A stretch of 49,954 bases of DNA from Bacilli bacterium. GTDB lineage: Bacteria; Bacillota_I; Bacilli_A; RF39; UBA660. Location: positions 1 to 49,954 of the forward strand of contig JAQUGJ010000001.1 in assembly GCA_028684255.1 (NCBI GenBank), in the 5' to 3' direction. This document shows positions 16,908 through 38,439 of this stretch, piece after piece; positions within the stretch are counted from its first letter, which is position 1; each line of letters begins with the position of its first letter. The translations under genes were made by a program, and so were the position numbers. Below the pieces are notes generated by a model. It was not told the origin of the DNA. It did no database searches and saw only the letters and a program-made list of their open reading frames with translations.

Positions 16908-19061
16908 TTAAACATCGTCATTAAAGAAATCATCAAAGAATTGATCATCAGTAATAAGGTTCTTATTATCCGACTTTTTATTTTCTTCATCTGGTATTTC
17001 AATTGGTTTAGGTTTTTCTTCAATAAAACCAGGTAATGTAACATTTATTTGTTCATCTTCTATTTTACTTATAATCTCTACTGGTTCATTATCCAATTCT
17101 TCAATGAAAGGCGATTTAATTTCTTCTACATTTTCAATTGTTGGCCTTAATATATTTCGATTTTGTGAAGACAATTCGCGCTCTCTTTTTTCTTCTTCTT
17201 CCAATTCCGCTATTTTAGCATCTATTCTTTTTACTAATTCATCTATATTAAATGCTCCTGGTTTTGAAGATTCTGACTGTCTTTCAGTTGCTCTACTAGC
17301 ATTGTCTACAGGATTAAGATTACCTAAAACTTCTTTTATCTTTTGTTCTTTTTTATTATCAACAAAAGCTTTTATATCAAAATAACGAACTTGTCCTGGA
17401 GTTCTCTCTGGGTAAGACGCTTTAATATAATCTTTTCCCCAAGCATTTTTTTCTAACATTTTAAAATTAGGTGTCATTTCAGTCTTATATGGCATCATTC
17501 TAGTTCTAATTGTAATAATTGACCATTGCTTTAAACGTTGTAAGTCACTTACTGTTACTAATGGTGTTGAAACTGTTTTATCTTTTTCTTTAGATTTTTC
17601 TTCTCCACACATTTTACTTATTTCTTCTAAAGCACTTATTTCACTACTAATTAAATAAATTATATTTCCACAATTTCCTTTTATTGTTTCGCCATTTTCT
17701 TTGCCATATACTTGCGTTAATTGTGCAAAGTTTTGAATAATAAAATTAAATCTAATCTTTCTACTACGTGCTGCAGTAACCATAGTTGTTACATCTTTAA
17801 GTGGGGGCATATTTGCAAATTCGTCTAGAATAAAATTGGTTCTAAATGGTAATTTCCCACCACTTTCTTGTGCTATATCAATTAATGTTTCATAGCATTG
17901 TTTAATAAATATTGTTACTAATGAATGATATGTCTTTTTTTCATCTTGAACTACTAAGAATACAGCTGTTTTCCTTCGTCCGATTTCTTTCATATCAAAG
18001 TCACTTTTTGATAACATTTCCGATAAATTTTGACGAGACGAAAATAGTTTAATTTTTTGTTTAAATACAGATAAAATACTACTTTTTGTTTCATTTGGTG
18101 CCATTAATGTACTTACTGCATTTATATACGCTGGTGATGTTGGATCTTTATAACTAAAGTATTCTTTAATATAGGTAGTATTACCCATTTTTTCTTCACC
18201 AGCACTAGTCATTAAGTTAATACTACTTAAATTTATTTCTGCTTCATCAGCATCATCGAATAATCCAAGTGCCAAACCTGCAAAATAATCCGCTGATGTC
18301 TTTTCCCAGAAAGGATCTTGTCCTTGGGCATTCTCATCATAAAGAATATTCATTGCTAAGTCATCTAATAATTCGTTAGCCTTATCTTGATTTCCATTTC
18401 TATATAATGAATATGGTAATGCTAAAGGATTCCATGAATTACCCCTTTGTGGATCACGGAAATTAAGTAAAACAATATTATATCCTTTTTCCTTTAATTC
18501 TATAGCATTGTTTTCATATATTTCACCCTTAGGGTCAGTAATAATCATCGATTCGCCTTTTTTGGCTAGTACTTTTACTAACGGTTGTACTAACATTTCT
18601 GTTTTACCAGAACCGGTTGATCCGATAATTAAACTGTGAAATTCACCATTATCTACCCATAATTCTTTACCATTATTTATAAGCGGAATACCTGCTACAT
18701 CAGAAGTTGGTGATGCAGGATCAACTCTTTTTAAAACTTTTTTCATTTCTTTAGTTGTTGCCCATCTTGCATAACCTTTATCTTTCTTAGCATTTGTTGA
18801 AATTCCAATACCTTTTTCTCTATCAAAAAATAAAGAAGAAACACTAAGCATTATAAATACTAATGCAAAAAAGAAGAAGACAAAAGTACCCGCTATTTTT
18901 TCTTTATTAAATGCAGGTAGTGGATCAAAACCATGAAAAGTACCTGTTCTTGAAAATGTTGTTAAATTTAATGTCGCTATTGCTACTAAATATAATAAAG
19001 CTACACAAAAAATTAAGAAAATTACTATATCTTTTGCATCTGCTCTTATTTTTAATTTCAT
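16908..19061 (-). CDS. type IV secretion coupling protein, VirD4/TraG family
   Basis: Two N-terminal TM helices, GYARWAT motif, Walker A GSTGSGKTE, Walker B-like FILDEF, acidic C-terminal tail. Confidence 0.85.
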   Translation of the reverse strand: MKLKIRADAKDIVIFLIFCVALLYLVAIATLNLTTFSRTGTFHGFDPLPAFNKEKIAGTFVFFFFALVFIMLSVSSLFFDREKGIGISTNAKKDKGYARWATTKEMKKVLKRVDPASPTSDVAGIPLINNGKELWVDNGEFHSLIIGSTGSGKTEMLVQPLVKVLAKKGESMIITDPKGEIYENNAIELKEKGYNIVLLNFRDPQRGNSWNPLALPYSLYRNGNQDKANELLDDLAMNILYDENAQGQDPFWEKTSADYFAGLALGLFDDADEAEINLSSINLMTSAGEEKMGNTTYIKEYFSYKDPTSPAYINAVSTLMAPNETKSSILSVFKQKIKLFSSRQNLSEMLSKSDFDMKEIGRRKTAVFLVVQDEKKTYHSLVTIFIKQCYETLIDIAQESGGKLPFRTNFILDEFANMPPLKDVTTMVTAARSRKIRFNFIIQNFAQLTQVYGKENGETIKGNCGNIIYLISSEISALEEISKMCGEEKSKEKDKTVSTPLVTVSDLQRLKQWSIITIRTRMMPYKTEMTPNFKMLEKNAWGKDYIKASYPERTPGQVRYFDIKAFVDNKKEQKIKEVLGNLNPVDNASRATERQSESSKPGAFNIDELVKRIDAKIAELEEEEKRERELSSQNRNILRPTIENVEEIKSPFIEELDNEPVEIISKIEDEQINVTLPGFIEEKPKPIEIPDEENKKSDNKNLITDDQFFDDFFNDDV

Positions 19062-19070
19062 GTTTACCTC

Positions 19071-19751
19071 CTACATTTGGTTTGCTTTTTTATTTTTTAA
19101 ATAGAAGAATGTAATAATTCCAACAATTGAAACTATTATTATTCCAGCAAAAATAATCATGTTAATATAAAAACTAAAATTCGGTTTTTCTGGTACCTCG
19201 ATTATTTTATAAGAAAATTTAATCGGTTTATTTAAGAAATTATCTCGATTGATTTTCCATATATAAGTCTTTCCATCAACTTCATCAGCATTATGATCAA
19301 TTGCTTCTACATCTTCCGCTAAATTAAATCTAATTGCCATTCTTTCAGAATAATAATATTGTGAATCAAAGCAAAGGAATTGTTCACTTGTTGTAATTAA
19401 ATATTTATCTTCTGTCTTAACACTTGAAAAAATATCATAACATGTTGCTGCTAAATAAAGTCCTGTAAATTCCGAAAAATTATTATATGTGTAATCGTAA
19501 TAAATATCCAATCCTTTATCAGTATATTCATAACTCGTATTATACAATTCGGTCGAAAAGGGATCTGTAAATACAGATACTGGTTCAATATCACTGTTAC
19601 TTTTTATTTCAGCACCAAGAAATTCATTAATACCATACGAAACCTTTGCCCTTTCAGTCAAGGAACTTCCACTAATATCTAAATCATATGTAGCGGAACA
19701 TCCTGTAAAAAATATTACAAACATTAAAAACCAAATTATTTTTTTTTTCAC
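19071..19751 (-). CDS. hypothetical lipoprotein with C-terminal TM anchor (T4SS-associated)
   Basis: Lipobox FFTG/C at residues 14-18 and C-terminal TM IIFAGIIIVSIVGIITFFYL. Sits between the hydrolase and the coupling protein. Confidence 0.6.
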   Translation of the reverse strand: MKKKIIWFLMFVIFFTGCSATYDLDISGSSLTERAKVSYGINEFLGAEIKSNSDIEPVSVFTDPFSTELYNTSYEYTDKGLDIYYDYTYNNFSEFTGLYLAATCYDIFSSVKTEDKYLITTSEQFLCFDSQYYYSERMAIRFNLAEDVEAIDHNADEVDGKTYIWKINRDNFLNKPIKFSYKIIEVPEKPNFSFYINMIIFAGIIIVSIVGIITFFYLKNKKANQM

Positions 19752-19760
19752 AATATCCCT

Positions 19761-22184
19761 CTATCCCAATAAAAATACAAAACCTGCAAAATAATATTTT
19801 CTATCACCACTAGTATAACCTAAAACACTATCAGCTGTCATCTCTCTACCATATCTAACTTCTACCCCGCTCCAACCAGAATAGCTACTCCAAGGTTTTT
19901 TCTTCCAACCATCACTAATGATAATTGAAGAAACTTTTCCAGAGCTTGAATAATTTACCTTTTCTACAATTGCAACGTGACCATAACCATTTCTGTAAAT
20001 ACCTGAGGCATCTTGATAGTTACTTCCACCTGCTGCTATTCCACCAGCCCAAGAAACTACTGAACCTGGTTTTGCTTCATTAACATTTGTTGAAACCGGA
20101 AAGTAATTGGAAAGGCCACTATAAGCACCCCATCCAGCCCCATCACCAGCATGATTTCTAACGGCATTTATAGCAGCTGCTCTCAGCGATGCTTCCATGT
20201 CCGAAAACATTAATATTTCAATTGCCCTATATTTGGAATACCACGGACATTGACCGATATTTCCAGCCTGACTATTATATATTTCTTTTCCATTAAAATC
20301 AACAGCCTGTCTGATTTCGTTTGAATCTTGTCCCTCTCTTATTGGTGCTGAACTACTATAAGTACCACCAATTAAACCTCCAGTAACTTTTTTTATTAAA
20401 ATATTTGTATCGTTTTTAAAATATTTTAATAAAACATTATCACTTGTTCTATCTGTTTCTGGCGTAATATCATTATAAATGTCTTGTAAATCTTGTAATT
20501 TAATATCACTTTCAGGTGTTGAACTTTCTGAAGAACCGTGTTCTATATATTCAAACTTTGTTCTATGTGAAGGCAGAATATCATCGTTTAAGTATAAAAC
20601 CTTGCCCCTACTAGGTAATAATTTGTCTTTTAATTCTTGTTCAGGTTCTACATACTTCAAATGTTCTTCATTTTCTACTGTATATAGGTCTAAAGGTTCT
20701 TTGCAAAAACCAGTTTCGTATAATATATATGACCTAAAAACAATTGCCGCTGCTTCGTCTATTACGTCATTGGTACTACTACCATAAACATTTTTTAGAT
20801 TTTTAACGAATCCTGCTACTAAATTTTCTAATTCATAAGGTTGCTCAACTAATGTATCATTTAAATTAACTGTTACACCAGTACATATATTTACAACAGC
20901 ACCTCTATTACTCATTAATTCTTCTAATATATATTCATAATATTCACTTGTCGAAATAATTTGTTCAGCTGCCATTTTTATTTCATTTTCTGTTGGTATG
21001 TATTCTATGTTTCGTAATTCTGCTATTTTTAATTCTGCTTTTTCTTCTATCTCTTTCTTCTCACTTGAAGAAAGCATATCACCATTTACTTTTATTAATA
21101 CTCCAGCTTTATAAGTATAACCTTCATCTGTTAACCATCTTCTAAATTTTTGATTATAATAATTTTCCTTTAAAACATCAGACAAATAATCTTCTATTAA
21201 AAATTGTTTGTATTTTTCTTCATCATAATCATATTTGACTCTTGTTACTATGGATTTGCTCATTTTATCAGTTGAAGGATCTTTTATTTCTGTACACGTT
21301 GATTCAATTACTTTACTTGTTAATTTTTTAGCAATTAATCTAAGTTTACTTTCAGAATTATTGTTTGTAAAAGTGTTTTCAAAAAAATTACCAATTGCTC
21401 CCCACCAAGAAGTATCTGGAGTATATTTTTCAATTAATGAAGCATAATTTGAATCACCTTCTATTGCTTTTTGATATACTTCATTATAATTACCACATGG
21501 ATGAGCATCTGAAACATTAGATGCCGCTAGAATTCCATCGTAATCAATTCCAACAGGATCTTCCTCATCGCTGTACCATAGATAATTTTCACCCAATACT
21601 TTTAATTCATTTTTTGATATTGAAAGAGAAGTCGTTCCATATAATAATTCATAATAACCATCTTCCGGTAATTTTTCATACATTATTGTCGATACTAGAA
21701 CAGGAATATTTATAATTGGACCATATGAAAATCTAGCATATCCGGCTTGATTCTCATTATACTTATCGTCATTTAATTCGCCAGACATTTTATTGCCGCT
21801 ATTTACATAGTACAAATCATATATAGTCTTGGTTGCATCAAAGAAAGCTTGCTCAGCTTCTGCTTCATCTCTTGCCAAACACTCTGCATCGGTTCCATAA
21901 CATCCCGAAGTAAATAAATTACCTACTTTTGTTCCAAAGGTTCCAACACTCTCTAAAACGTTACCAACGATCCCCGTAACAAGGATTACTGGTGCCATTG
22001 CTGCCATTATTATTATAACAACAACAGCGCCAAAAAAGACAACAGGAATAATTGCTAAAGCAATTTTTACCATTAGCATTGTCTTTTTAACACTCTTTAA
22101 GGAATCTTTTTCTGATTTATAATTTTTTATATTTTCTGATAAGTTTTTTCTTGTTTTATTTAAAAACGAACCAAATTTTCCCAT
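19761..22184 (-). CDS. membrane-anchored peptidoglycan hydrolase with C-terminal CHAP domain (VirB1 / PrgK / TcpG functional analogue)
   Basis: N-terminal TM; C-terminal CHAP catalytic Cys (GQCPWYSKYRA) and His (GYGHVAIVEKV). Central segment VAGFV...DEAAAIVFRSYILYE is faintly SpoIID-like. Confidence 0.75.
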   Translation of the reverse strand: MGKFGSFLNKTRKNLSENIKNYKSEKDSLKSVKKTMLMVKIALAIIPVVFFGAVVVIIIMAAMAPVILVTGIVGNVLESVGTFGTKVGNLFTSGCYGTDAECLARDEAEAEQAFFDATKTIYDLYYVNSGNKMSGELNDDKYNENQAGYARFSYGPIINIPVLVSTIMYEKLPEDGYYELLYGTTSLSISKNELKVLGENYLWYSDEEDPVGIDYDGILAASNVSDAHPCGNYNEVYQKAIEGDSNYASLIEKYTPDTSWWGAIGNFFENTFTNNNSESKLRLIAKKLTSKVIESTCTEIKDPSTDKMSKSIVTRVKYDYDEEKYKQFLIEDYLSDVLKENYYNQKFRRWLTDEGYTYKAGVLIKVNGDMLSSSEKKEIEEKAELKIAELRNIEYIPTENEIKMAAEQIISTSEYYEYILEELMSNRGAVVNICTGVTVNLNDTLVEQPYELENLVAGFVKNLKNVYGSSTNDVIDEAAAIVFRSYILYETGFCKEPLDLYTVENEEHLKYVEPEQELKDKLLPSRGKVLYLNDDILPSHRTKFEYIEHGSSESSTPESDIKLQDLQDIYNDITPETDRTSDNVLLKYFKNDTNILIKKVTGGLIGGTYSSSAPIREGQDSNEIRQAVDFNGKEIYNSQAGNIGQCPWYSKYRAIEILMFSDMEASLRAAAINAVRNHAGDGAGWGAYSGLSNYFPVSTNVNEAKPGSVVSWAGGIAAGGSNYQDASGIYRNGYGHVAIVEKVNYSSSGKVSSIIISDGWKKKPWSSYSGWSGVEVRYGREMTADSVLGYTSGDRKYYFAGFVFLLG

Positions 22185-22202
22185 TCAAAACACCGCCTAT
22201 TA

Positions 22203-23987
22203 TTATAGTCCGCCACCGCTTCCAAATGAATCTAATTCTTGTTCAGTAACAACTATATTTATTTGCATTCTTCTACTACCACACACAAATAAAGCTTCAC
22301 CTTGATTGTAATTCTTTATTCCTGACTTTTCATTATCATTTAAATCAATTAATTTTGATAAATCTTCAACAGCTTGTTTCTTTAATCCCATAACTAAGTA
22401 ATAAGAAGCATTATCAAATATTGCTTTTCCTTGTGTTATTACTTTAGGATCACTAAAGTCAGTTGGTTGTTGTGTAATAATAATTGTACCAGTGTTATAT
22501 TTTCTAGCACGTCTTTGTATTTGTGCTAAGAAATCAGCACCTAAAGCATTACCACCACTTAACAATACATGGGCTTCATCTACTACTAATACAGTATTTT
22601 TACTCTTATCTAAAGTTAATCCCCACGCATATTTTAATATATTAAAGAATAAAGCATTTCGAATGTTTTCGTCAGCATTCATTAATTCTCTAATGTTAAA
22701 TACAACAAATTCACTATTTGGTTTTATTGTTGTATGACCACTAAAGTAATATTTCAATTCTCTTACTAACGGTCTAATTTTTAATTCTAATTTTTCTAAA
22801 ATTTCTTTTTCATGTGATTGTTCTGGCATCGATAATAATCTACCTTTTATTGTAACGTGTACATCTTCAAAAGTAGGATAATCTGCCGAAGTCATTTTAC
22901 TGAAATCGGTATTAAAGTCAATACCAAATCTTTTATATGTTTCTTGAACTATTTCACTAAACATATTTACTACATCTTCTTCTATGGAAGGATCATAATA
23001 TTTCATAAATGCTTTAATTGTTTGGAAAGTTCTAGTTAATATTGTATAACCAAGACCTGATGCTAATTCTTCTTCGTCAGCATCCATAACAATTTCTAGT
23101 GGATTTATCATACCAAATTCTCCACCTTTACCTAAGTCAATAAAGTCACCATTAAATGCTTTAGCCATATCTTCTAATTCACCTTCAGGGTCAATTAATA
23201 CAACTTGATATCCATTTCTAAAATGTGATCTAAAAATTAACTTAGCAGCAGTAGATTTACCACTACCAGAAGTACCTAATATAATTAAATTAGCATTGTT
23301 TCTATTATGTTCTTTTTTAGTTTGATATAAAAACTGATTAAATAGAATAACTCCTCCAGAGAAATCAACTCCTAATAAAGTTGAAAGGCCTGGATCTTTG
23401 ATGCTATCAAAAATAAATGGATACATTGCTGCTAACGTTGGTGCTGCAATTGGTGTACCAATTCTATTTTCAACATCTTGATTTGGGAATATTGGAATTA
23501 TTGATTTAAATACTTGTTCTTGTTGGAATCTTAAAGGGATTGCCCTTAATTCCATAGCATCTAAGTAATTTTTTATTTGCATTTTTTTGCTTACTAAATC
23601 TTCTTCTGAATCTGCACTTATCATTATGTGCATTTGAAAGTCATATATTTTTGCTTGCGTAGACGCTAATTCTTGAATAAACATTTCTAACGATTCATAA
23701 TCTTGTCTAATTCTTTCTTGAATTGTCTTATCATTTTCTTCTTGATAACGGATTTTCAAATCTGCTATTTCTTTATTTAACATCTTACTAACCATACTAA
23801 ATGGTATTGGAATATGTTTGATTACTACCTTTATTCCTGACATACTTGTTATATTAGAAAGGAATCCTGGACTTATCATTTTTGGAAAAGAAATAACCGA
23901 AAATATAGTTGTAAATTTATCATTAATGATAATTTCTGCTGGTTTAAATTCCAACGCCTTTGGCGCTATTTGATTTCTAATTTCCAT
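22203..23987 (-). CDS. T4SS ATPase, VirB4 / TraE / PrgJ family
   Basis: Walker A GTSGSGKST and Walker B VLVVDEAH; N-terminal VirB4-type domain; start overlaps the upstream stop (TAATG). Confidence 0.85.
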   Translation of the reverse strand: MEIRNQIAPKALEFKPAEIIINDKFTTIFSVISFPKMISPGFLSNITSMSGIKVVIKHIPIPFSMVSKMLNKEIADLKIRYQEENDKTIQERIRQDYESLEMFIQELASTQAKIYDFQMHIMISADSEEDLVSKKMQIKNYLDAMELRAIPLRFQQEQVFKSIIPIFPNQDVENRIGTPIAAPTLAAMYPFIFDSIKDPGLSTLLGVDFSGGVILFNQFLYQTKKEHNRNNANLIILGTSGSGKSTAAKLIFRSHFRNGYQVVLIDPEGELEDMAKAFNGDFIDLGKGGEFGMINPLEIVMDADEEELASGLGYTILTRTFQTIKAFMKYYDPSIEEDVVNMFSEIVQETYKRFGIDFNTDFSKMTSADYPTFEDVHVTIKGRLLSMPEQSHEKEILEKLELKIRPLVRELKYYFSGHTTIKPNSEFVVFNIRELMNADENIRNALFFNILKYAWGLTLDKSKNTVLVVDEAHVLLSGGNALGADFLAQIQRRARKYNTGTIIITQQPTDFSDPKVITQGKAIFDNASYYLVMGLKKQAVEDLSKLIDLNDNEKSGIKNYNQGEALFVCGSRRMQINIVVTEQELDSFGSGGGL

Positions 23988-24553
23988 TAAGACATCACCG
24001 TCCCAAACTCTGTGGTTTGCCCACCATTTAAGAAGTTATCTAAAATCATTCTTAAATCATCGTTAGTTGTTTGCATTGAAGTTAATCCCGCTGTTGCAAA
24101 AGTATTAATTAAAGCTCTTATTCTTTTTTGAATTAATTCATCATTTTTTTCTCTAAATAATAAGAAATATTCAGTATCTACTACGTTATTATTAGTAAAC
24201 GAGTTAGCTTTGTTTATATCGTCTAAGATTAATTTTCTTTTTATATTATCTTGAACTGAATTATAGTGGAATTGTAATTGCGATAGATATAAATTAATAT
24301 CTACAGGTCTATCTGCTACTACTATCCAAAATTCATAATCCACTATGTTATAAACATTTCTCAAGTTAGCAATTACACTATTTTGCATATCTTGTTCCAT
24401 AATAAATATATTTCTTGGAACTATTTTAACCCCAGTCACTTTTAAACCATTGTCTAAAATAATCATTCCATTTGTAATATTTTTTACCGGAATATTATCT
24501 GCTGTGTACTTACTTTTTTTGGGTTTGACTGTCTTCTTTGAATTCGTCGCCAT
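23987..24553 (-). CDS. hypothetical cytoplasmic protein, translationally coupled to VirB4; resembles a stand-alone VirB4 N-terminal-type domain
   Basis: 188 aa with no TM. The segment IPVKNITNGMIILDNGLKVTGVKIVPRNIFIMEQD parallels IAPKALEFKPAEIIINDKFTTIFSVISFPKMISPG at the VirB4 N-terminus. Confidence 0.45.
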   Translation of the reverse strand: MATNSKKTVKPKKSKYTADNIPVKNITNGMIILDNGLKVTGVKIVPRNIFIMEQDMQNSVIANLRNVYNIVDYEFWIVVADRPVDINLYLSQLQFHYNSVQDNIKRKLILDDINKANSFTNNNVVDTEYFLLFREKNDELIQKRIRALINTFATAGLTSMQTTNDDLRMILDNFLNGGQTTEFGTVMS

Positions 24554-24857
24554 CTCGATAGCACCAACCTTTCCACATATAACTTCTTCTTAATGTAAAG
24601 AATTCATAAATAATTACTATCAATTGAAACATATTGTGATAATTAGGGACTGGTAACACTAGAAAAGAAGATATCAGTCCCGGTATTATACAAATAATTG
24701 CTATTGTAACATTCTCTGTCGGTAGTATTAATAACAATAAAATTGTTAAAACTATCCCTACTCCAAATATTATTAAATCAATGGTTCTAAATAGCCCAAA
24801 TATTAATAATGATTTTTTGGAGTTTGCAGGTATCAAATATTGATTGCCTCCATCCAC
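24510..24857 (-). CDS. PrgI / TcpE / VirB3-like small membrane protein
   Basis: 115 aa with GTG start and GGAGAG RBS. IPANSKKSLLIFGLFRTIDLIIFGVG followed by two TM helices; located immediately upstream of VirB4. Confidence 0.6.
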   Translation of the reverse strand: MDGGNQYLIPANSKKSLLIFGLFRTIDLIIFGVGIVLTILLLLILPTENVTIAIICIIPGLISSFLVLPVPNYHNMFQLIVIIYEFFTLRRSYMWKGWCYRDGDEFKEDSQTQKK

Positions 24858-29300: not shown

Positions 29301-29648
29301 TTAAACACCATTTACAAAGATATCAAAGCATGATCCAGCACCAGTCGCAACATCAGTACCACCAACCATACCTACAACTAATTTAACTACAACAACTACA
29401 AAGAATACTAGTGCTGCTGCGATTAAACGTTTAACAAATGTTTGTTGTCCTTTTTTAATTTCATCTTCTTTTTGTGCCATAACTGCTTTACCTAAATCAA
29501 GCATTCCCCAAATTATAAGTAAAACTGGAACAGCAAATTGAATTACCGAAATAACTGTCGCAACTAAATTAGGGATTTTGTCATCTACAGTAATTGTATT
29601 ACTCCCACCTAATGTACAAGTTACTAAACTATTCACTAAATCTAACAT
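29301..29648 (-). CDS. VirB2/TrbC-like pilin-type small membrane protein
   Basis: 115 aa; two TM helices flank a basic loop (KAVMAQKEDEIKKGQQTFVKR). One Cys before TM1 and one after TM2. Strong RBS AAGGAGGAAG. Confidence 0.5.
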   Translation of the reverse strand: MLDLVNSLVTCTLGGSNTITVDDKIPNLVATVISVIQFAVPVLLIIWGMLDLGKAVMAQKEDEIKKGQQTFVKRLIAAALVFFVVVVVKLVVGMVGGTDVATGAGSCFDIFVNGV

Positions 29649-29724: not shown

Positions 29725-30753
29725 TCAAAATATACCAAGTATCTTGCTTTTTTTGCTTTTTTCTTCACTAGGATCTTGTCTATGAAACCCTAAAGAAAAT
29801 AGAAATTGGTTCATTGCAAACGATTCTTTATCTCTATCATTTAAAGGTGGCAAATTATATAGTACCTTTAATTTTGATTCATATTCAAACTCTAAAACAT
29901 CTTTTGAGGCTAATAAACTTTGGTTCAAAATGACTTTTTCTTTAGAAATTCTCTGTAACAAAGTTGGATTAACGAGCATTAATCTATTTAGTTTGATAAT
30001 AGATGGTTCTATTAAATATATATATTCACCAATAAATGGATCTGCTGAAATTGAATCATTAACATCAATTATAATTATTTCAACATCTTTATACATATTT
30101 ATAAAATTACCTATTTCATTACTTGCAATACTTTTTAATTCGTTATCTCTAAAGAAAGCAAAATCTCTTTTATCTAATTCAACAGCTATAACTGAATAAT
30201 TTTTAGATAATTCTTTTTTCATCATATATGCTAAAGTAGTTGCCCCAGCATGTTGAGTAGCGTTTTTTATTCCTAAAACCCTTGTTTCTACTTTGGGTTG
30301 AAACGATTCTTTTGTTTCAGATTTTTTGATTACTTTTTTAGTAGTTTCTGTTTCGCTTTCTACTACCACTGGTTCTAATTGTTGAATATGTGCTACATCA
30401 CGATATGAATTAGGATTGTTATATAGATACATTAATCCTTCCATATTAGTTGTAAAGTTATAGATTCCCATTGAAATAAGTTTTGTTAAATATTCGCTCG
30501 AAGTATTTTCTACTGTATCATCAAGGAGCAAAATAACTTTATCCATATCCAAAGCCATTGATAATTTTTGTAAATTTTTTATATCAGTATAATTTTTAAT
30601 AGCGGTTAAATCTAAAATCATACGTTGAAAAAAGAAGTTTTGAAAATTGGAAATAATTTCATCGACATCAAATTCACCATACTTTGTCTTCATTACTTCA
30701 ATTTCAAGGCCAGTTAACATCGCCTGATATTTATTTGCAATTATAACATTCAT
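29725..30753 (-). CDS. TadZ/CpaE-like protein: receiver-like N-domain plus ParA/MinD-fold domain with degenerate Walker A
   Basis: VLGIKNATQHAGATTLAYMM occupies the place of the deviant Walker A xKGGxGK[ST]T. IIIIDVN is Walker B-like. Location is within the pilus genes. Confidence 0.5.
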   Translation of the reverse strand: MNVIIANKYQAMLTGLEIEVMKTKYGEFDVDEIISNFQNFFFQRMILDLTAIKNYTDIKNLQKLSMALDMDKVILLLDDTVENTSSEYLTKLISMGIYNFTTNMEGLMYLYNNPNSYRDVAHIQQLEPVVVESETETTKKVIKKSETKESFQPKVETRVLGIKNATQHAGATTLAYMMKKELSKNYSVIAVELDKRDFAFFRDNELKSIASNEIGNFINMYKDVEIIIIDVNDSISADPFIGEYIYLIEPSIIKLNRLMLVNPTLLQRISKEKVILNQSLLASKDVLEFEYESKLKVLYNLPPLNDRDKESFAMNQFLFSLGFHRQDPSEEKSKKSKILGIF

Positions 30754-31615: not shown

Positions 31616-31636
31616 TTTAACACCTCGTCAATAGAT

Positions 31637-31660: not shown

Positions 31661-31662
31661 TT

Positions 31663-31893: not shown

Positions 31894-31916
31894 TTTATCA
31901 CCACCTCATCATTTTT

Positions 31917-31946: not shown

Positions 31947-31965
31947 GTTTTAAATATCGTGTTTA

Positions 31966-32754
31966 CTATATTCCCATGATTGTAAGCATCGAAATAAGTA
32001 ATAATACTATTATCCCACCACCAGTAGATGCTAACATGATCATTGTTTGCCTTTCCATTCGATCCAATCTGTCAGAATACCTTTGCTCTCTAGCTTTATT
32101 TTGTAAAGTAGAAACATTTTTAGAAAACATTACGATTTGTTCGTGTTTGTTTTCTTGCGATCCGATTCCTAATCTATATAACAATCTCATCATACGCATT
32201 GAATCTCTTACCGGGTATTCCTTTGCAAATTCCATATATGGTTCTACAGTTGAATCTCCAGAATCAATACGTGATACTAATCTTCTTAGACCGGGTCTAA
32301 ATATCTCTGGTGCGGTATCAATTGATCTTGATAACGCAACCGGAACAGTATAATGTTGAATTAATATTTCAAGACTTTTTAAAAAATGCGGTAACATTAA
32401 GTTTATTTTATATAAATTTACACGATAATAGCTTTTTAATTTAGTATATTGCAATTTAAATGTTACAAAACCTGCCGCTAGGGCTCCTATTAATACTAAA
32501 AAACTATATTGACTCATAAAGATAAATAAAACTGCAAAAATCGTAATTATTCCTGTTTGAACTCTCTTACTAAACAATTTTACTACATCTACATCTTCAC
32601 CGTATCTTATAGTCAATAGAAACTTATAATCATCTTCCATTAAAAACCTTAAATATGGTTCTGTATCTGTAATGAACTTTTTAGTATCTATCTTATTATT
32701 AACTTGAAATATAAGAATTATAATAGCGGCTATTATTAAAAATGTTATTTCCAT
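31966..32754 (-). CDS. TadC-like platform protein (T2SS-F family)
   Basis: 262 aa; N-terminal TM, central TM pair, cytoplasmic helical domain (PVALSRSIDTAPEIFRPGLRRLVSRIDSGDS) and C-terminal TM. Overlaps the TadB-like stop. Confidence 0.6.
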   Translation of the reverse strand: MEITFLIIAAIIILIFQVNNKIDTKKFITDTEPYLRFLMEDDYKFLLTIRYGEDVDVVKLFSKRVQTGIITIFAVLFIFMSQYSFLVLIGALAAGFVTFKLQYTKLKSYYRVNLYKINLMLPHFLKSLEILIQHYTVPVALSRSIDTAPEIFRPGLRRLVSRIDSGDSTVEPYMEFAKEYPVRDSMRMMRLLYRLGIGSQENKHEQIVMFSKNVSTLQNKAREQRYSDRLDRMERQTMIMLASTGGGIIVLLLISMLTIMGI

Positions 32755-33659
32755 TATTCAGCCCCCACATCTTCATTATAATATTTTTCGCCATTTAACA
32801 AGAAATATGTGTTAACTGCTATGATAAAATGCAAGAAGACTTGAATTTTCCAATCTGTTAACATTTCAATGTATTTTTCTACTCCAACTAATATTTGGAT
32901 TCCAAATACCATTAAATATAAAATGAATCCGAATTGTACGAATTTCTTATGAAAAGTGGCACGATCCATTCTGTCTCTATAAACACTTTCAACCAACATA
33001 TCGATGTCTAACGACATATTTTCTAATGCATCACTTGAATCTTTAGAACCTTCATTAGTAATTTGCAAAAATAATTGATGCATGTTTTTAACAATATAAT
33101 AATCATATTTTGCATTCATATAGTCTAACGATTGAGTAATTGTCCCGTTTTCATAAGCCATATCGATCATTACTTGAACATCTTGTTTAACAGGATCTTC
33201 TAAAACTCCTGACTCATAAACACCTTCTAGAGCTTTTACAAACGATTGTGTCGTTGCAAATTCCATTATTGTATTTGTTGTATATACTTGAATTTGTTCA
33301 AATATATATTCACTATATAATCTTTTACATCTTAAATAAGTAAGATAAGGAATAGTTGCTACTGCTAAAAAAGCATATATTATTGAAATAATCAAATTAT
33401 AAAAATAAAAATATGATATTACACCTGCAACTCCTGCAAATAAAACAACTTGTATAACATATTGTCTTGGTGTATATTCTTGGCCTAAATCTTTTACTTT
33501 TTGTCTTATCATTTTAAATGAATAAGAAGCATATCTATCATAAAAACCACCAACCTGATTTATTATAAATTTGTATGTGTTTTCAGTTGATACGTTACGA
33601 TAAAAAACAACAAATAAAAGTATTCCAGCAATTATTGCAAAAATTATTCCTGTAGGCAT
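32754..33659 (-). CDS. TadB-like platform protein (T2SS-F family)
   Basis: 301 aa; same TM/helical-domain layout as TadC-like; directly downstream of the CpaF-like ATPase. Confidence 0.55.
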   Translation of the reverse strand: MPTGIIFAIIAGILLFVVFYRNVSTENTYKFIINQVGGFYDRYASYSFKMIRQKVKDLGQEYTPRQYVIQVVLFAGVAGVISYFYFYNLIISIIYAFLAVATIPYLTYLRCKRLYSEYIFEQIQVYTTNTIMEFATTQSFVKALEGVYESGVLEDPVKQDVQVMIDMAYENGTITQSLDYMNAKYDYYIVKNMHQLFLQITNEGSKDSSDALENMSLDIDMLVESVYRDRMDRATFHKKFVQFGFILYLMVFGIQILVGVEKYIEMLTDWKIQVFLHFIIAVNTYFLLNGEKYYNEDVGAE

Positions 33660-33674
33660 TTTTCATCCTCCTTA

Positions 33675-34823
33675 CTATATTTCTAATGTCTCAATCTTCT
33701 CATCTTCAACTGGTACTTGTGAGTTATTAAACTCTTTTAATATTTCACTATTTTCAGACTTGTTTTGTGATAAATCTATTGCATCCTTAGATAAAATTAC
33801 ACCTTGTCCTTCTAAATATTCTAATAAATATCGACTAGGTTCTTTTCTTACCACGTTACCTGTACTTGTCTTTTTATAAATAGTATTATATACTGCTTCA
33901 TTTTCTTCAGTAACATAAAACTCCGTTACTTCAGCAATTTCACGATGAAATCTACCTGTATTTTTATCTTGATATCCTCTTACATATACTCCTAATTGAA
34001 CATATCGATAAATTGATTTTAAGAATTGATCAATTTCTTGATTTGTTTCTAACAAACTATACATACGATTAGGTATCGAAGAAGCTTTGTCAGCATGGAT
34101 TGTCGATAATATGTAGTGTCCTGATGAAATAGAGTTACGAACAGCCATTACTGCTTCAGCACTACGAACTTCGGATAATAATATCCATTTAGGATTCTGT
34201 CTCATACATGTTACTAATACATCACTATACGAGGCAATATTATTTGTCTTCATTGTGACAATATCTCTAGTTGGATATATTTTATCCAAGTGAAGTTCTA
34301 GAGTATCTTCAATAGTTATAATTTTTTCATTTTCTTTGATTTTTGACGCTAAATATTTAACAAATTCTGTTTTACCAGAACCGGTTTCGCCACAAACTAT
34401 AATATTACAATGTCCTTTAACGCACTGTACTAAAAAATCATGAACATCTAGAGTAATATAATTTTCTTCAATAATTTTTTCTTTTTGAAGTCTTATTTTT
34501 GCTGGTGTCTTACGGATAACAACCGCGATTCCATTTTGAGCAACAGAATCATGAACGAAATTAAGGCGCAATTCAGCACTTTCAGCATCCAGAAAGGGAT
34601 GAGCCATATTAAATGTTTTTCCCATTACGTTAGAACATTGAAACGCTAATTTTTCAATAAATATATTGTTAATCTTGGGGTTTTCTGTTCTATAAACACC
34701 TTTAGATAATGTTTTTAACCATATTTGTCCATTGTTACTATAAGAAATATCAGTTATATCGTCATTTTCCATATATTCTTTTAATGGACCAAAATCAATT
34801 TGGGAAAACATATTTCCTGTCAT
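33675..34823 (-). CDS. CpaF/TadA-type secretion ATPase (T2SS-E / VirB11 superfamily)
   Basis: Walker A CGETGSGKTE, Walker B region ILLSEVR, His box STIHAD; followed by two T2SS-F-like genes. Confidence 0.8.
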   Translation of the reverse strand: MTGNMFSQIDFGPLKEYMENDDITDISYSNNGQIWLKTLSKGVYRTENPKINNIFIEKLAFQCSNVMGKTFNMAHPFLDAESAELRLNFVHDSVAQNGIAVVIRKTPAKIRLQKEKIIEENYITLDVHDFLVQCVKGHCNIIVCGETGSGKTEFVKYLASKIKENEKIITIEDTLELHLDKIYPTRDIVTMKTNNIASYSDVLVTCMRQNPKWILLSEVRSAEAVMAVRNSISSGHYILSTIHADKASSIPNRMYSLLETNQEIDQFLKSIYRYVQLGVYVRGYQDKNTGRFHREIAEVTEFYVTEENEAVYNTIYKKTSTGNVVRKEPSRYLLEYLEGQGVILSKDAIDLSQNKSENSEILKEFNNSQVPVEDEKIETLEI

Positions 34824-34834
34824 TTTACTCCTCC

Positions 34835-35647
34835 TTAATCGTTGTTTGGTATTATTAATTCACCATTATCATTTGTTTCAGGTTCAATATTTACTGTTTG
34901 ACTTGTTATATATTGTTCTAAATATTCTAATCCTTTTTGAACACCTTCACCAGCAATCGTACCACCTTTTGGTATAATTTTTAATTCTACATTATTGATA
35001 TACGATGCTTTTAAAATTAGCATAAATATCTCTTTTGGCAAACCATAAGTGATACTAGAAGGCACACGATTTTCATCAAGATTTTCAAATACTGATTGAC
35101 CACTACTATCTTTTACAGTTAATACTTTAACGTTTTCAACTAATTTTCCTACAAAAACTTTTCCGTTTTCTTCACCCTTCATATAAATATCAATTTTATT
35201 ACCAGGATATATAGAGTTTCCATATGTTTGTTCAATGTCAACTTCCATAAAAACAGGAACTTGTCCTTCCTCTAATTCAGAGAATGCAAAATCCGGTAAA
35301 TTCTCTTTTGAAACTATAACATCTTTAAAAAACATACTTCCTTGTGGTATAACAGCGTTTACACTTGTGTATTTACCAATTATTTCTCTACTTGATAATA
35401 AAACATTAGAACTTATAGAAATAGATGGCACACTGATATAAGAAATCATTTGATTGGTGATTTCTGTTTTTGGTTGAATAGTCATAGACGCAATTGGAAT
35501 TTCAATTGGTTCAACCGCAGTTTGAACTTGTTTATTATATCCAAAATATAATAAAGAAATTATAACTACTACTCCTACTATGGTAATTGTATTTTTATTT
35601 GTGAAAAACTTTTTTAATTTAAATCCTAATCCGCTATTCATTTTCAT
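34835..35647 (-). CDS. CpaB/RcpC-like pilus assembly protein (SAF domain)
   Basis: N-terminal TM, then a SAF-like segment (IASMTIQPKTEITNQMISYISVP...IIGKYTSVNAVIPQGSMFFKDVI) and a beta-rich C-terminal domain. Confidence 0.55.
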   Translation of the reverse strand: MKMNSGLGFKLKKFFTNKNTITIVGVVVIISLLYFGYNKQVQTAVEPIEIPIASMTIQPKTEITNQMISYISVPSISISSNVLLSSREIIGKYTSVNAVIPQGSMFFKDVIVSKENLPDFAFSELEEGQVPVFMEVDIEQTYGNSIYPGNKIDIYMKGEENGKVFVGKLVENVKVLTVKDSSGQSVFENLDENRVPSSITYGLPKEIFMLILKASYINNVELKIIPKGGTIAGEGVQKGLEYLEQYITSQTVNIEPETNDNGELIIPNND

Positions 35648-35661
35648 CTTCCCTTTCTACC

Positions 35662-36063: not shown

Positions 36064-36078
36064 ATTACACCACTTTCA

Positions 36079-36738
36079 TTATTTGTATTTTTTATTTTCA
36101 TTTTTTCTTAATAAAAATATAAATGTCGAACAAACTACGATTATACTGATCAATACGTATAAATAATATTCATATATATATTCTAAAATCACTTCATACC
36201 AAGCTTCTTCTAAAACTACTATTTCTTTTTCTACTTCAGGAACATTCTTATACTCTTTGATTTTATTTTTAAATTCTTGGTAACTTATATTTAAAAGTTG
36301 CCATTTGTTACATAGGTAATAATCTTCTATATCATTACAAATGTCATCTTCAGAAAATCTATTATATTTTGGAAATGTAACATATGTTGTTAAAATAAGT
36401 CTCCCTTTACATGCAGGCTTATTTGAATATATTCTAAATTGATAAGCACCACCTGGCACATAATTATTTTTTTCAATTGTAATTTTATCTGTATATCGAT
36501 AATTTTCTAACTTATCGACATCATATATGTAAATGTTTGGATTTAAATTTGCAATCGTTAACTTAAATCTGACTTCTGAATTTATTCCCGATTCTACTTT
36601 ATAATAATAATCATAACTAAAATTCACATTTGATGCAATTTTCTGTAATTCTGAAAGTTCTGAAAAGCTACATTCTGCTTTTACTTTATATGGGGCTAAT
36701 ACTATAAGAATAAATATTATATATCTTATGCTTTTCAT
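36079..36738 (-). CDS. hypothetical secreted protein with C-terminal TM anchor
   Basis: Signal peptide ending KVKA/EC, four ectodomain Cys, C-terminal TM plus basic tail. Confidence 0.55.
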   Translation of the reverse strand: MKSIRYIIFILIVLAPYKVKAECSFSELSELQKIASNVNFSYDYYYKVESGINSEVRFKLTIANLNPNIYIYDVDKLENYRYTDKITIEKNNYVPGGAYQFRIYSNKPACKGRLILTTYVTFPKYNRFSEDDICNDIEDYYLCNKWQLLNISYQEFKNKIKEYKNVPEVEKEIVVLEEAWYEVILEYIYEYYLYVLISIIVVCSTFIFLLRKNENKKYK

Positions 36739-36771
36739 TTACTAACCTCCATTAACTATTTTATCATATTA

Positions 36772-38364
36772 TTACTTTAGTTGGTAATTATAAATGTTAT
36801 TTCTTATTTGTATTTGTAAAGATAACGATTCAGATTCCATTATATCTTTTTTAATTTCTATATAATAATTATCCTTAACGTTAACTTTTGAAGGCGATAC
36901 CGAACTACTTATGTTGCTATATATAGTTTTACCATCCTTACTATAAATAATTTTACCAAATTTTTCTAAAAAAGTATATAGATTGTAATTATTTAAACTA
37001 TTTTCTGCGTTTTCTACTACCCCATTTATACTTAATAAAACCTTGTCGTAACGTTTATTTAAATTTGGTTTTACATACTCTAAAGAAGGATAACAATTAG
37101 AAGTAGTAGGGCAAAATCTATAATTTAAAGTAAATTTATCTTTTATTTCAAAAGCATTTATTGTAAATTGAGTATCTTTTAAATTAGTATTTTCAATAAT
37201 AACTGTTTCTTTTAAATTTACATCCGTTGTTTTATAATCATTATCAAGATGTTGATAGTTTAAATTTACTCGATCATAAACAGGATCTATTTTCCCCCAT
37301 TTAGTATCATAATTTCTTACATATCTAAAATATAAATCTCCTATATTAATATTTTTGGGAACTTCATACACTAATAAAATCTTTTTTTTATCTTTTCCTA
37401 TTTTAGCATTTTTATATGATTGTCCAATATCTAAAAAAGGAGAGCCAGTTAAATTTTTTTCATGGTAATATACTTTATCTTTATAAACTAATTGAAACTC
37501 TGTAGTGATTAAAGTTTCAGACTTGCTTAAATTAGATATTTCTGTTTCAACAACTACAAAATTGTCATCGACCATTTGAAAACCTTTATAATTATTTTGT
37601 AAAATATAAGCATTCACAACATTTATTGAATATTTATCCGTATAAAATAATTCATTCATATTAAATAACCTATTATCATTTTTAAACATTAAAAATAAGG
37701 TTGTTCCAAACATTCCTGCAACAATAAACAAAATAACAAAAAAATTAAATTTTTTTTCAATATAATAATATTTTATAAATCTTTTAGTTTTTCTAAAAAA
37801 TCTTTTAAAACCTTCTGTATCAACGCTAAAACTAACTTCTACTTCTTCAGCATCAGACTCAGCAACTTCTAAAGATTTTAATTCTTCACTAAAACCAAAT
37901 TTTTTAACATCTATTCCAGTCGCTCTAACTAAAAATATTAAAGCACTTCCAATTTGAAAATAAAACAATAATTGTACTATATCTCTTACAAAGTTTAATT
38001 CACGAAGTTCCATAATACGCTTTTCTAATTCAAGCATATTAGAATAAGAAAAGTTATAAATAATTAATGACGCTAATGCAATTACAATGTTTACGACATA
38101 AAAAACAACCGGTTTTTGTTTTCTAAGTAAAACCGCTAAAACAATGATTAAAAAAGCTAAAAACACAAAAGGCAATATAAACATTGCTTGATTATATGTT
38201 CCTACCGCATCGATTATAGTATCACTTTGGTCCATTATATAAGCATTATAAAACTTTAATATAATATTAGTTCTAAATGCCAAATAAATCATTAAGGTTG
38301 CTAAAACGAAATGTAAAAAGCGGAAATGTTTTATTAAAAATGCATAGGGTCTTTTTAAAATCAT
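36772..38364 (-). CDS. hypothetical polytopic membrane protein with large extracytoplasmic beta-rich C-terminal domain (first gene of cluster)
   Basis: About 5 TM helices, then ~300 aa of Y/N/K-rich domain. The track start is a GTG at 38373, which falls inside AAGGTAGGTG. I prefer ATG at 38362-38364 (MILKRPY), 6 nt after that RBS. Confidence 0.55.
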   Translation of the reverse strand: MILKRPYAFLIKHFRFLHFVLATLMIYLAFRTNIILKFYNAYIMDQSDTIIDAVGTYNQAMFILPFVFLAFLIIVLAVLLRKQKPVVFYVVNIVIALASLIIYNFSYSNMLELEKRIMELRELNFVRDIVQLLFYFQIGSALIFLVRATGIDVKKFGFSEELKSLEVAESDAEEVEVSFSVDTEGFKRFFRKTKRFIKYYYIEKKFNFFVILFIVAGMFGTTLFLMFKNDNRLFNMNELFYTDKYSINVVNAYILQNNYKGFQMVDDNFVVVETEISNLSKSETLITTEFQLVYKDKVYYHEKNLTGSPFLDIGQSYKNAKIGKDKKKILLVYEVPKNINIGDLYFRYVRNYDTKWGKIDPVYDRVNLNYQHLDNDYKTTDVNLKETVIIENTNLKDTQFTINAFEIKDKFTLNYRFCPTTSNCYPSLEYVKPNLNKRYDKVLLSINGVVENAENSLNNYNLYTFLEKFGKIIYSKDGKTIYSNISSSVSPSKVNVKDNYYIEIKKDIMESESLSLQIQIRNNIYNYQLK

Positions 38365-38439
38365 TTTTTTCACCTACCTTATATATTTAGTATACAACAA
38401 AACACGCAAAAAAAAAAGGCAAAACTTTTTATTTACAAC

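Follow-up and report, generated by a model that had tools for sequence, protein, structure and literature searches.

A type IV filament-like module joined to a Gram-positive type IV secretion locus on an RF39 chromosome, with homology to the pLS20 mating apparatus

Where genes resembling those of a pilus and those of a type IV secretion system (T4SS) stand side by side in one bacterial operon, do they specify two machines or one, and what might such a machine serve? This question is raised by a gene cluster in a 49,954-nucleotide (nt) stretch of DNA from an RF39 member of the Bacilli (contig JAQUGJ010000001.1 of assembly GCA_028684255.1, positions 1 to 49,954), a stretch that we refer to as the window. 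The cluster occupies positions 16908-38373 and consists of 21 consecutive open reading frames (ORFs), all on the minus strand and read from 38373 down to 16908; an earlier note made from the sequence had identified these 21 co-directional genes and had proposed that they join a Tad-like pilus module to a Gram-positive-type T4SS in a composite machine of a kind not previously described. We find that, as the earlier note had supposed, the two halves are a genuinely linked unit rather than chance neighbors, and that they are homologous to and collinear with operons of pLS20-family and other Firmicutes plasmids, so that the arrangement is not in fact a new one. We consider it probable that the cluster encodes one co-inherited envelope machine, namely a chromosomally fixed, relaxase-less derivative of a pLS20-type Gram-positive mating-pair apparatus.

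The linkage of the two halves is evident in the neighborhoods of related genes. The ATPase of the upstream, filament-like half belongs to a family that comprised more than 7,500 clusters at E ≤ 1e-10 and that is represented in at least 578 species-representative genomes (one per species); the 120 relatives listed share 75-100% identity with the window protein and carry names of uncultured Bacilli. Among the named members are Candidatus Coprosoma (CAG-822), Candidatus Fimihabitans and Firmicutes CAG:822, and both Candidatus genera are assigned to GTDB order RF39, family CAG-822 (PMC8035907). (Several contigs that bear this Bacilli-type locus, at approximately 80% protein identity, were deposited as 'Ignavibacteriales' or 'uncultured Muribaculaceae' metagenome-assembled genomes, which probably reflects mis-binning or default naming.) In 48 of the 54 relatives with 10 kb of downstream sequence, the stretch beyond the ATPase gene contains VirB6-like, VirB3-like or VirB4 genes. 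Filament genes were likewise found upstream of VirB4 in 26 of the 34 VirB4-centered metagenome loci with 10 kb of upstream sequence, and the remaining eight extend no farther than the first T4SS_pilin gene, as would be the case if the variable insert is longer there. A VirD4 gene follows in every locus with enough flank (38/38).

The 21 genes, which we number g01 to g21 in the order in which they are read, are closely spaced. The earlier description of gaps or overlaps of mostly 1-35 nt holds for 14 of the 20 junctions, which are 1-nt overlaps or gaps of at most 35 nt, whereas at the other six there is an overlap of 44 nt (one junction) or a gap of 47-94 nt; the smallest intergenic gap within the cluster is 3 nt and the largest 94 nt. 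In the downstream half, sequence comparison points to the parts by which a Gram-positive T4SS is recognized, namely VirB4, VirD4, a VirB6-like protein, a wall hydrolase and, by its position and a weak TcpE match, a VirB3-like protein. The genes of this half (sizes in amino acids, aa; TM, transmembrane; HMM, hidden Markov model) are the following.

29301..29648, minus strand: g12, 115 aa, a two-TM hairpin protein, VirB2-like (T4SS_pilin superfamily, by an HMM of its relatives)
27987..29225, minus strand: g13, 412 aa, a lipoprotein (lipobox in the sequence) and putative hypervariable accessory surface protein
27434..27892, minus strand: g14, 152 aa, with a signal peptide and a T4SS_pilin-like hairpin (HMM of the g12 family, 1.7e-13)
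24875..27430, minus strand: g15, 851 aa, an extended VirB6-like, polytopic protein with a long hydrophilic tail (NF045848, 1.2e-5)
24510..24857, minus strand: g16, 115 aa, a two-TM protein at the VirB3/PrgI position (position and weak TcpE match, E 0.08)
23987..24553, minus strand: g17, 188 aa, a TrsD/TraC-like protein, the predicted equivalent of the VirB4 N-terminal domain (NF045975 positions 92-277, E 5.5e-15)
22203..23987, minus strand: g18, 594 aa, the VirB4 ATPase (NF045975 positions 295-891, 345 bits; AAA_10; P-loop_TraG)
19761..22184, minus strand: g19, 807 aa, a membrane-anchored cell-wall hydrolase with a putative VirB1 role (C-terminal CHAP domain, PF05257, E 2.5e-8)
19071..19751, minus strand: g20, 226 aa, a lipoprotein with a C-terminal TM segment (sequence features)
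16908..19061, minus strand: g21, 717 aa, a VirD4-type coupling protein of the CD1115 family (NF045973, 285 bits, cut-off 250)

The VirD4 and CHAP assignments had been anticipated in the earlier note and are borne out here, the former by a score above the family cut-off and by Pfam matches to T4SS-DNA_transf (186 bits), TrwB_AAD_bind and TraG-D_C. The nucleotide-binding motifs quoted in that note are all present in the translations (GSTGSGKTE in g21, GTSGSGKST and VLVVDEAH in g18, and CGETGSGKTE, ILLSEVR and STIHAD in the filament-half ATPase g05). The VirB4 that it named is recognizable as a member of NF045975, a Mycoplasma integrative conjugative element (ICE) VirB4 family, at 345 bits (under the equivalog cut-off of 590), the next model being the C. 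difficile CD1110 family at 176 bits, but it is split into ORFs of 188 and 594 aa that share one base at a stop/start overlap. Since this split is conserved in relatives and the small ORF is TraC-like (g17 orthologues have PF26593 on record), it would correspond to the TrsD plus VirB4 arrangement known from one MPF_FATA subclass and from Patescibacteria (PMC12102498). (The g16 and g17 ORFs overlap by 44 nt when read from their longest starts, and the true start of g17 may lie farther downstream.)

The remaining proteins of this half were placed with the help of relatives. For the VirB6-like assignment of g15, made already in the earlier note, the evidence is weak but convergent: the NF045848 match (the MMCAP2_0566 conjugal transfer family), a match to the extended VirB6 of a plasmid (see below) and TrbL_4 matches among its relatives. 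An HMM built from g12 relatives matched PF18895-positive proteins of one related locus (L165) at 1e-7, and 25 of 74 proteins from the same region of relatives match PF18895 directly; it is through these relatives that the two VirB2/TrbC-like hairpin proteins noted earlier, g12 and g14, can be assigned to the T4SS_pilin (PF18895) superfamily. The proposed PrgI/VirB3 identity of g16 is consistent with its place in the operon, with the TcpE match given above and with 46-61% identity in relatives. In relatives, the stretch from g11 to the VirB3-like gene is a variable cassette that holds one to three small T4SS_pilin genes and a VirB6-like gene and, as a rule, a single variable protein of 170-700 aa that is often a T4SS_pilin fusion, whereas its minimal form is one pilin gene plus VirB6; such a variable protein occupies the position of g13, for which no homologue was found in 160 related loci. 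(One relative carries a YhcG-type PDDEXK nuclease (DUF1016) gene in this cassette, and another an IS200-like transposase gene after VirD4; both look like sporadic insertions.) For g20, there was no family match, and its identity is approximately 29% (37 relatives); g19 is hypervariable outside the CHAP domain (approximately 29% identity).

The upstream half, g01 to g11, is best described as a type IV filament-like module of the CpaF/VirB11 clade; when judged as a Tad locus in the strict sense, it did not qualify. As far as its sequence features go, its working can be likened to that of a Tad or Com-type pilus module. Its genes are the following.

36772..38373, minus strand: g01, 533 aa, first gene of the operon, with a polytopic N-terminus and a large extracytoplasmic domain
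36079..36738, minus strand: g02, 219 aa, with a signal peptide, a Cys-rich domain and a C-terminal TM segment
35662..36063, minus strand: g03, 133 aa, a pilin-like DUF5411 protein (PF17424, E 8.7e-47), candidate minor pilin
34835..35647, minus strand: g04, 270 aa, CpaB/RcpC-like, with an N-terminal TM segment (PF16976 and TIGR03177, both sub-threshold)
33675..34823, minus strand: g05, 382 aa, a secretion ATPase of the CpaF/VirB11/FlaI clade (T2SSE, E 1.7e-29)
32754..33659, minus strand: g06, 301 aa, candidate platform protein, TadB/GspF-like by predicted fold (AlphaFold2 and Foldseek)
31966..32754, minus strand: g07, 262 aa, a second polytopic protein, at the TadC position (position and plasmid homology)
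31663..31893, minus strand: g08, 76 aa, candidate major pilin (conserved N-terminus and hydrophobic helix)
31187-31615, minus strand: g09, 142 aa, pseudopilin-like, paralogue of g10 (leader and hydrophobic helix)
30766-31182, minus strand: g10, 138 aa, pseudopilin-like, paralogue of g09 (leader and hydrophobic helix)
29725..30753, minus strand: g11, 342 aa, cytoplasmic, with an unconfirmed TadZ-like label (no family match)

Four proteins of this half are pilin-like. Each begins with a short, charged leader that ends in Gly and precedes a hydrophobic helix (MKEAAG in g08, MRESVG in g09, MKESIG in g10 and MKESMWG in g03), and the four leaders are strongly conserved in relatives. In particular, g08, which starts with MKEAAGEANLTV and has no E-Y at +5/+6, shares the N-terminus MKEAAGEAN[LM]TV and the hydrophobic helix with 86 of 88 relatives; the family of g09 and g10 conserves an M[KR]E[SG]xG[ST] leader, the hydrophobic helix and an SY.KAFKV motif; and relatives of g03 conserve MKESFWG and a hydrophobic N-terminus. 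The 76-aa pilin and pseudopilins of the earlier note thus persist as proteins with conserved pilin-like N-termini, joined by the DUF5411 protein as a fourth, although none carries the Flp motif. An AlphaFold2 model of g06, built from a 33-sequence alignment (predicted local distance difference test score, pLDDT, of 76.7), was compared with the Protein Data Bank (PDB) by Foldseek, and the sole high-probability matches were cytoplasmic domains of the GspF family (EpsF, OutF): 2vmb_B at a probability of 0.97 with a template-modeling score of 0.66, 3c1q_B at 0.95 and 5nbg_A at 0.85, with target-normalized scores of approximately 0.65. Orthologues of g04 consistently have RcpC matches on record, and the ATPase, whose Walker A motif is invariant, keeps approximately 80% identity among relatives.

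The other genes of this half have less familiar products. The earlier designation of g11 as a TadZ-like protein of ParA fold was not confirmed: g11 has no match in Pfam, NCBIfam or PDB sequences, profile search included, one of 27 orthologues matches CbiA weakly (E 0.023), and a single-sequence AlphaFold2 model was unusable (pLDDT 35.8); the protein is nonetheless conserved at 46-63% identity in relatives. Neither g01, kept at 27-39% identity in 67 relatives, nor g02, whose cysteines are conserved in 54 relatives, matches a family in Pfam or NCBIfam. The 'GIDVKK' motif of g01 led us to consider the protein a prepilin peptidase, an assignment that we rejected on finding that the candidate Asp varies among relatives. 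In many relatives there is an extra gene of approximately 940-1,090 aa between the g02-like and DUF5411 genes (for example L001 5622-8726 and L165 4177-7008), with no Pfam match, which the window lacks; one relative that is farther removed adds a sortase and a surface Ig-like protein at the same position, and pLS20-type plasmids have a thioester or isopeptide adhesin at the equivalent place. Two known machines were rejected as templates for the module. One is the SpoIIIA sporulation channel, which combines a VirB11-like ATPase with the GspF-like SpoIIIAB; no spore_III model of NCBIfam is among the matches of the ATPase, and neither the sizes nor the order of the genes agree with it. The other is the ComG competence pseudopilus, for which the ComGA score of the ATPase is just 84 bits against a cut-off of 300 and N_methyl pilins are absent.

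The closest counterparts of the whole arrangement turned up on plasmids. A tblastn search with g05 found 'CpaF/VirB11 family' genes whose products are 33-35% identical on pLS20-family Bacillus and other Firmicutes plasmids. In one of these, pBatNRS213 (OK210094.1), the conjugation operon encodes, in this order, a 126-aa protein, a VirB11-like ATPase, 267-aa and 245-aa proteins and a 120-aa DUF4320 protein, then tandem 47-aa proteins and several other small proteins, two 363-aa proteins, VirD4 and an extended VirB6, and then 103-aa and 192-aa proteins, VirB4, VirB8-like and VirB1-like proteins, Aux1, Aux2 and the relaxase. HMMs built from RF39 orthologues and searched against the pBatNRS213 proteins gave the following pairs.

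g03 (DUF5411) and the 126-aa protein, which is gene-36-like: E 9.7e-7
g05 (ATPase) and the VirB11-like ATPase: E 7e-52
g06 and the 267-aa protein: E 1.2e-4
g07 and the 245-aa protein: E 1.2e-5
g15 (VirB6-like) and the extended VirB6: E 3.2e-5
g18 (VirB4) and the plasmid VirB4: E 4e-37
g21 (VirD4) and the plasmid VirD4: E 6e-71

Consistent with these pairs, profile-profile comparison by hhalign gave 91.9% for the DUF5411 pair and 94.5% over 197 columns for the g07 pair, with low cross-controls; the link of g09/g10 to the plasmid 120-aa DUF4320-like proteins was weak, and that of g16 to the proteins at the plasmid DUF5592 position reached an E of just 0.003. The same layout occurs on four other Firmicutes plasmids, those of Brochothrix, Paraclostridium, Peribacillus and Niallia, which carry annotated TrbC/VirB2 or CagC genes, a CD1115-family VirD4 and 'pLS20_p028 family' VirB6-like proteins. 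In common with the RF39 locus, pLS20-family plasmids have a DUF5411-like protein, the CpaF/VirB11 ATPase, two membrane proteins, small pilin-like and VirB2-like proteins, a CD1115 VirD4, an extended VirB6, a protein at the VirB3 position, one of approximately 190 aa at the TrsD position, VirB4 and a wall hydrolase; for seven of these parts sequence homology was established. The differences are as plain. Identities are low (approximately 30-35%). The plasmids are mobile and have a relaxase, Aux proteins, primase, surface exclusion and quorum control, none of which is present in the window, whose DNA is chromosomal, whereas the RF39 version adds the CpaB-like protein, the 342-aa g11, g01 and g02. 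It uses a CHAP hydrolase where pLS20-type plasmids use a transglycosylase/C40 enzyme, it places VirD4 last rather than before VirB6, and no VirB8-like protein was found in it, unlike in pBatNRS213.

These comparisons indicate that the locus varies an architecture already known from plasmid conjugation, one in which the filament half went unannotated. Indeed, the authors of the pLS20-family paper regarded the VirB11 homologue as unusual for Gram-positives, listed genes 36 and 38-47 as unknown and stated that Gram-positive elements form no pili (PMC8557374), and reviews hold that Gram-positive T4SSs lack VirB11-type ATPases (PMC12857230). The premise of the earlier note that monoderm T4SSs do without pili is itself contested: according to a preprint of December 2025, pili of PrgF, a VirB2-like protein, are essential in pCF10, and nearly all of a set of more than 1,000 plasmids from Gram-positives encode VirB2-like proteins; the filament module is not mentioned there (10.64898/2025.12.18.695078). 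Our literature searches found no account of an RF39 T4SS or Tad system or of a pLS20 pilus or Tad system, which is not proof that none exists. (Note that pLS20-type plasmids also encode two to four tandem 47-50-aa proteins that start MLDQN(T/A)DR and continue with one hydrophobic helix (L168 14461-15189, L166 14147-14459, L169 19196-19599 and L171 19176-19513); they recall Flp pilins in size and arrangement, and no description of them as pilins was found in the literature searched.)

On the RF39 chromosome the locus is held under strong purifying selection, as the median identities between relatives and the window show. These are 80% for the ATPase g05, 77% for VirB4 (g18), 72% for the TrsD-like g17, 70% for g06 and 63% for both VirD4 (g21) and g07, compared with 69% for RmuC, 58% for ScpA, 51% for rhodanese and 49% for ScpB in the flanks, such that conservation is higher in the motor proteins than in the housekeeping genes on either side, with RmuC similar. 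The surface-exposed g14, g15, g19 and g20, on the other hand, stand at approximately 30%. This is the pattern of a core machine that is inherited vertically while its surface components diversify, and not that of a mobile element.

The cluster is flanked by ordinary chromosomal genes. By Pfam and ARAGORN these are ScpA, ScpB and a tRNA-Leu(caa) upstream and, by Pfam, rhodanese, a VTT/DedA protein, RmuC and UvrA downstream; LysRS, acetate kinase, a PASTA kinase and similar genes were read from translations farther out. In many relatives, scpAB and tRNA-Leu upstream and rhodanese and RmuC downstream recur, although the tRNA-Leu gene is in some of them on the opposite strand and farther off. Every long ORF of the window is on the minus strand and GC skew is uniform; G+C is low (approximately 24-33%), at approximately 29% in the cluster and 26% in its flanks with the same skew. 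No relaxase family match was obtained for any cluster protein or flanking gene, so that the relaxase just outside the cluster that the earlier note had named as a possible refutation is absent from the flanks, as it is from beside the relatives' clusters; genes inserted after VirD4 in relatives encode T4SS_pilin fusions (10/22) or else housekeeping proteins, and never a relaxase. The window also contains no integrase or transposase, the 3' end of the tRNA-Leu is not repeated elsewhere in it, and a megablast search of the cluster against plasmid and phage collections found no near match. Two further features lie between scpB and g01.

38485-38571, minus strand: tRNA-Leu(caa), predicted by ARAGORN
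Within 38374-38571, after the tRNA-Leu gene, minus strand: a hairpin and T-run, then the putative operon leader/promoter region (sequence inspection)

The hairpin after the tRNA-Leu gene is terminator-like; at the 3' end of the operon, the sole stretch scanned, no terminator-like site was predicted. Elsewhere in the window, a 516-aa protein (41416-42966, minus strand) carries an HEFVH (HExxH) zinc-protease-like motif and has no Pfam match.

How might such a machine work? The T4SS translocon would consist of the VirB3-like protein, the TrsD-like protein with VirB4, the extended VirB6, the VirB2-like T4SS_pilin proteins, the CHAP hydrolase and the VirD4 receptor, and the filament part of the CpaF/VirB11-clade ATPase, the two platform-position proteins, the CpaB-like protein, one small pilin and three pseudopilin-like proteins. 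We propose that the ATPase, the g06/g07 platform and a CpaB-like collar assemble the 76-aa pilin, together with g03, g09 and g10 as minor pilins, into a short and possibly retractile pilus or pseudopilus. The CHAP enzyme would open the wall and the fiber would pass through the gap; RF39 organisms are predicted to have peptidoglycan (PMC10868615), and a PASTA kinase is encoded in the window. The fiber might then make or tighten contact with another cell, or span the wall, and together with the variable VirB2-like or lipoprotein components might give specific contact with a target cell; in this respect, the earlier idea of a Tad-type fiber that supplies contact or retraction for the channel is one that we also infer. 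VirD4, VirB4 and VirB6 would then move a substrate through the T4SS channel, and that substrate could be protein or DNA, the latter either chromosomal or transferred by way of a relaxase encoded elsewhere. Because the locus is core and vertically inherited and has no adjacent relaxase, we suggest that it serves the cell itself rather than the spread of a mobile element, as a system for contact-dependent exchange of DNA or protein.

Several results weigh against our reading of the cluster as a filament-bearing mating apparatus turned to the use of the cell. The ATPase, named CpaF/TadA in the earlier note, has the T2SSE domain but scores equally to VirB11 and CpaF (CpaF 71 bits, VirB11 70 and FlaI 67 against PDB sequences, a range that does not separate them); its best NCBIfam match is VirB11 at 119 bits, under the cut-off, and no equivalog cut-off was reached. 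The CpaB-like label of g04 likewise stands below threshold, at 26.4 bits for PF16976 (RcpC/CpaB; cut-off 28.8) and at E 1.3e-7 for TIGR03177, far under the cut-off of that model, and a CpaB-like profile found nothing among PDB sequences. As for the two T2SS-F-like platform proteins proposed earlier, neither g06 nor g07 matches T2SSF (PF00482) in Pfam even at E=10, and the predicted fold that speaks for g06 came with weak Foldseek E-values of approximately 1 despite the probability of 0.97. Fifty-five of 56 members of the g06/g07 families also have no Pfam T2SSF match, the other reaching E 0.011; searches with distant representatives from a library of 1.84 billion proteins and profile searches against PDB sequences failed to connect the two proteins to T2SSF as well, and paralogy between g06 and g07 was undetectable by hhalign. 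(A profile search seeded with distant g06 relatives alone returned 10 proteins.) The pilin leaders have no Flp G/XXXXEY motif, and g08 has no Pfam match, Flp and N_methyl included. Pfam found no peptidase A24 (prepilin peptidase) among 31 window proteins (21 of the cluster and 10 flanking), nor did inspection by eye of the remaining window ORFs. On the T4SS side, sequence search gave no VirB8, PrgL or TcpC family match among the cluster proteins, and an HMM from g20 relatives does not match the plasmid VirB8-like protein. Finally, a relaxase could be encoded elsewhere in the genome.

Much of this evidence would also be expected if there were no filament at all, the ATPase being the VirB11 of the T4SS, as the pLS20 authors name it (PMC8557374), and its small and polytopic membrane neighbors T4SS-specific subunits. 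The VirB11 score and the lack, in the cluster, of T2SSF, Flp and N_methyl matches and, in cluster and window, of a prepilin peptidase all agree with this explanation, which we nevertheless hold to be improbable, if the least so of those considered. The g06 model matches GspF-family domains and nothing else at high probability, a CpaB/RcpC-like protein is present (albeit on a sub-threshold match), and no fewer than four proteins pair a pilin-like, short charged leader with a hydrophobic helix. To our knowledge, Gram-negative VirB11 ATPases have no such partners. Moreover, the filament module also occurs without a T4SS: one stand-alone locus (L163) has DUF5411, a CpaB-like protein, the ATPase and two membrane proteins, and another (L164) has a minimal form. 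The existence of these loci argues that the module is one in its own right. (Beside the module of L163 are a ToxN toxin gene and a reverse-transcriptase gene, at 69-554 and 8734-9807, which may indicate a mobile or defense-island context.)

The same stand-alone occurrence (L163 and L164; PMC9523054) can be turned to a different use, namely to suggest that the operon houses two independent systems, a Tad-like adhesion pilus for colonization and a T4SS that works alone. The RF39 ATPase also scores slightly higher against a stand-alone version (211 bits) than against those of the plasmids (153-164 bits). Against this, the linkage and gene order of the two halves are kept across hundreds of RF39 species and both are kept again in unrelated conjugative plasmids from Bacillus, Brochothrix, Paraclostridium, Peribacillus and Niallia, and within the operon the gaps between the halves are small, with no terminator predicted in the 3' end that was scanned. 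We therefore regard two independent systems as unlikely and favor a physically coupled filament and T4SS.

A third explanation is about as unlikely. It accepts a single machine and makes it a competence-like importer of DNA, along the lines of ComB in H. pylori or of Ced and the Ups pili in archaea, that would supply a reduced, auxotrophic genome with DNA or nucleotides. The lack of a nearby relaxase, the core and chromosomal nature of the locus, weak CedB and CedD matches, RmuC and UvrA as neighbors, and the reported link between Tad pili and DNA uptake in Liberibacter (PMC8513845) are all in keeping with import. However, the Ced matches are far weaker than those to conjugation families, the closest homologues are conjugation operons of the export type, and VirD4 is always present (38/38 loci), whereas ComB functions without a coupling protein (PMC12857230). 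That the cluster is a still-active or recently decayed ICE inserted at the tRNA-Leu gene is very improbable despite the position of that gene directly upstream of g01 and the kinship with conjugative plasmids, for the window has no integrase, relaxase or transposase, integration at the tRNA-Leu was rejected because no att repeat was found, G+C and skew match those of the flanks, many species share the same insertion context, and the proteins diverge at least as slowly as those of housekeeping genes.

The locus presents an entire type IV filament-like module built into the operon of a Gram-positive T4SS, with the same module unannotated in the genetically tractable pLS20 family, and the means by which monoderm T4SSs make contact and cross a thick wall becomes directly testable in pLS20. 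RF39 bacteria, an abundant and uncultured order of the human and animal gut with reduced, auxotrophic genomes, keep the relaxase-less version among their most conserved loci, which suggests a role in exchange between cells that matters to their biology, much as in Patescibacteria. A bolder proposal, which we put forward as speculation and think unlikely, is that RF39 bacteria depend on the filament and the T4SS for a contact-dependent life on other bacteria, with attachment by a retractile fiber and transfer of protein or nucleic acid, and that the same module is the missing wall-spanning or contact device of pLS20-type conjugation. Were the contact-dependent reading true, the locus would be to these Bacilli what the type IV pili and T4SS, both essential for epibiotic growth, are to Saccharibacteria.

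How, then, does the locus compare with known systems? With the Tad/Flp loci of Aggregatibacter, Caulobacter and Bifidobacterium it appears to share a CpaF-clade ATPase followed by two polytopic proteins, a CpaB/RcpC-like protein upstream, and a small pilin with pseudopilin-like proteins; unlike them, it has no T2SSF sequence match, Flp G/XXXXEY motif, local TadV peptidase or confirmed TadZ, and its ATPase is equidistant from VirB11 and FlaI. A computationally flagged 'secretion-related' operon of Roseburia, Ruminococcus and Eubacterium with DUF5411, a CpaF ATPase and a PilC-like protein is stand-alone, of eight or nine genes and with no T4SS genes reported, whereas the RF39 module is T4SS-linked (PMC9523054). 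The IncI R64 thin pilus, PAPI-1 and the archaeal Ups pili with Ced pair a type IV filament with VirB4- or VirD4-type machinery for DNA transfer between cells, as the RF39 locus may do (PMC12857230; PMC12102498), but these systems are diderm or archaeal, their pili are of unrelated classes, and the pilus is usually encoded in a separate gene cluster. By analogy, the closest functional parallel appears to be the relaxase-less T4SS of the Patescibacteria (the candidate phyla radiation, CPR), which, like the RF39 T4SS, is of monoderm-conjugation origin, chromosomal, widespread in a reduced-genome lineage and mostly relaxase-less, with a separate TrsD-like protein beside VirB4 and hypervariable VirB2-like pilin arrays (PMC12102498). 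In Southlakia, the T4SS and type IV pili are essential for epibiotic growth (PMC12102498; PMC12857230). Patescibacteria encode type IV pili in separate loci and rarely have VirD4 near virB4 (PMC12102498), whereas in RF39 the filament genes and VirD4 stand with virB4 in a single operon.

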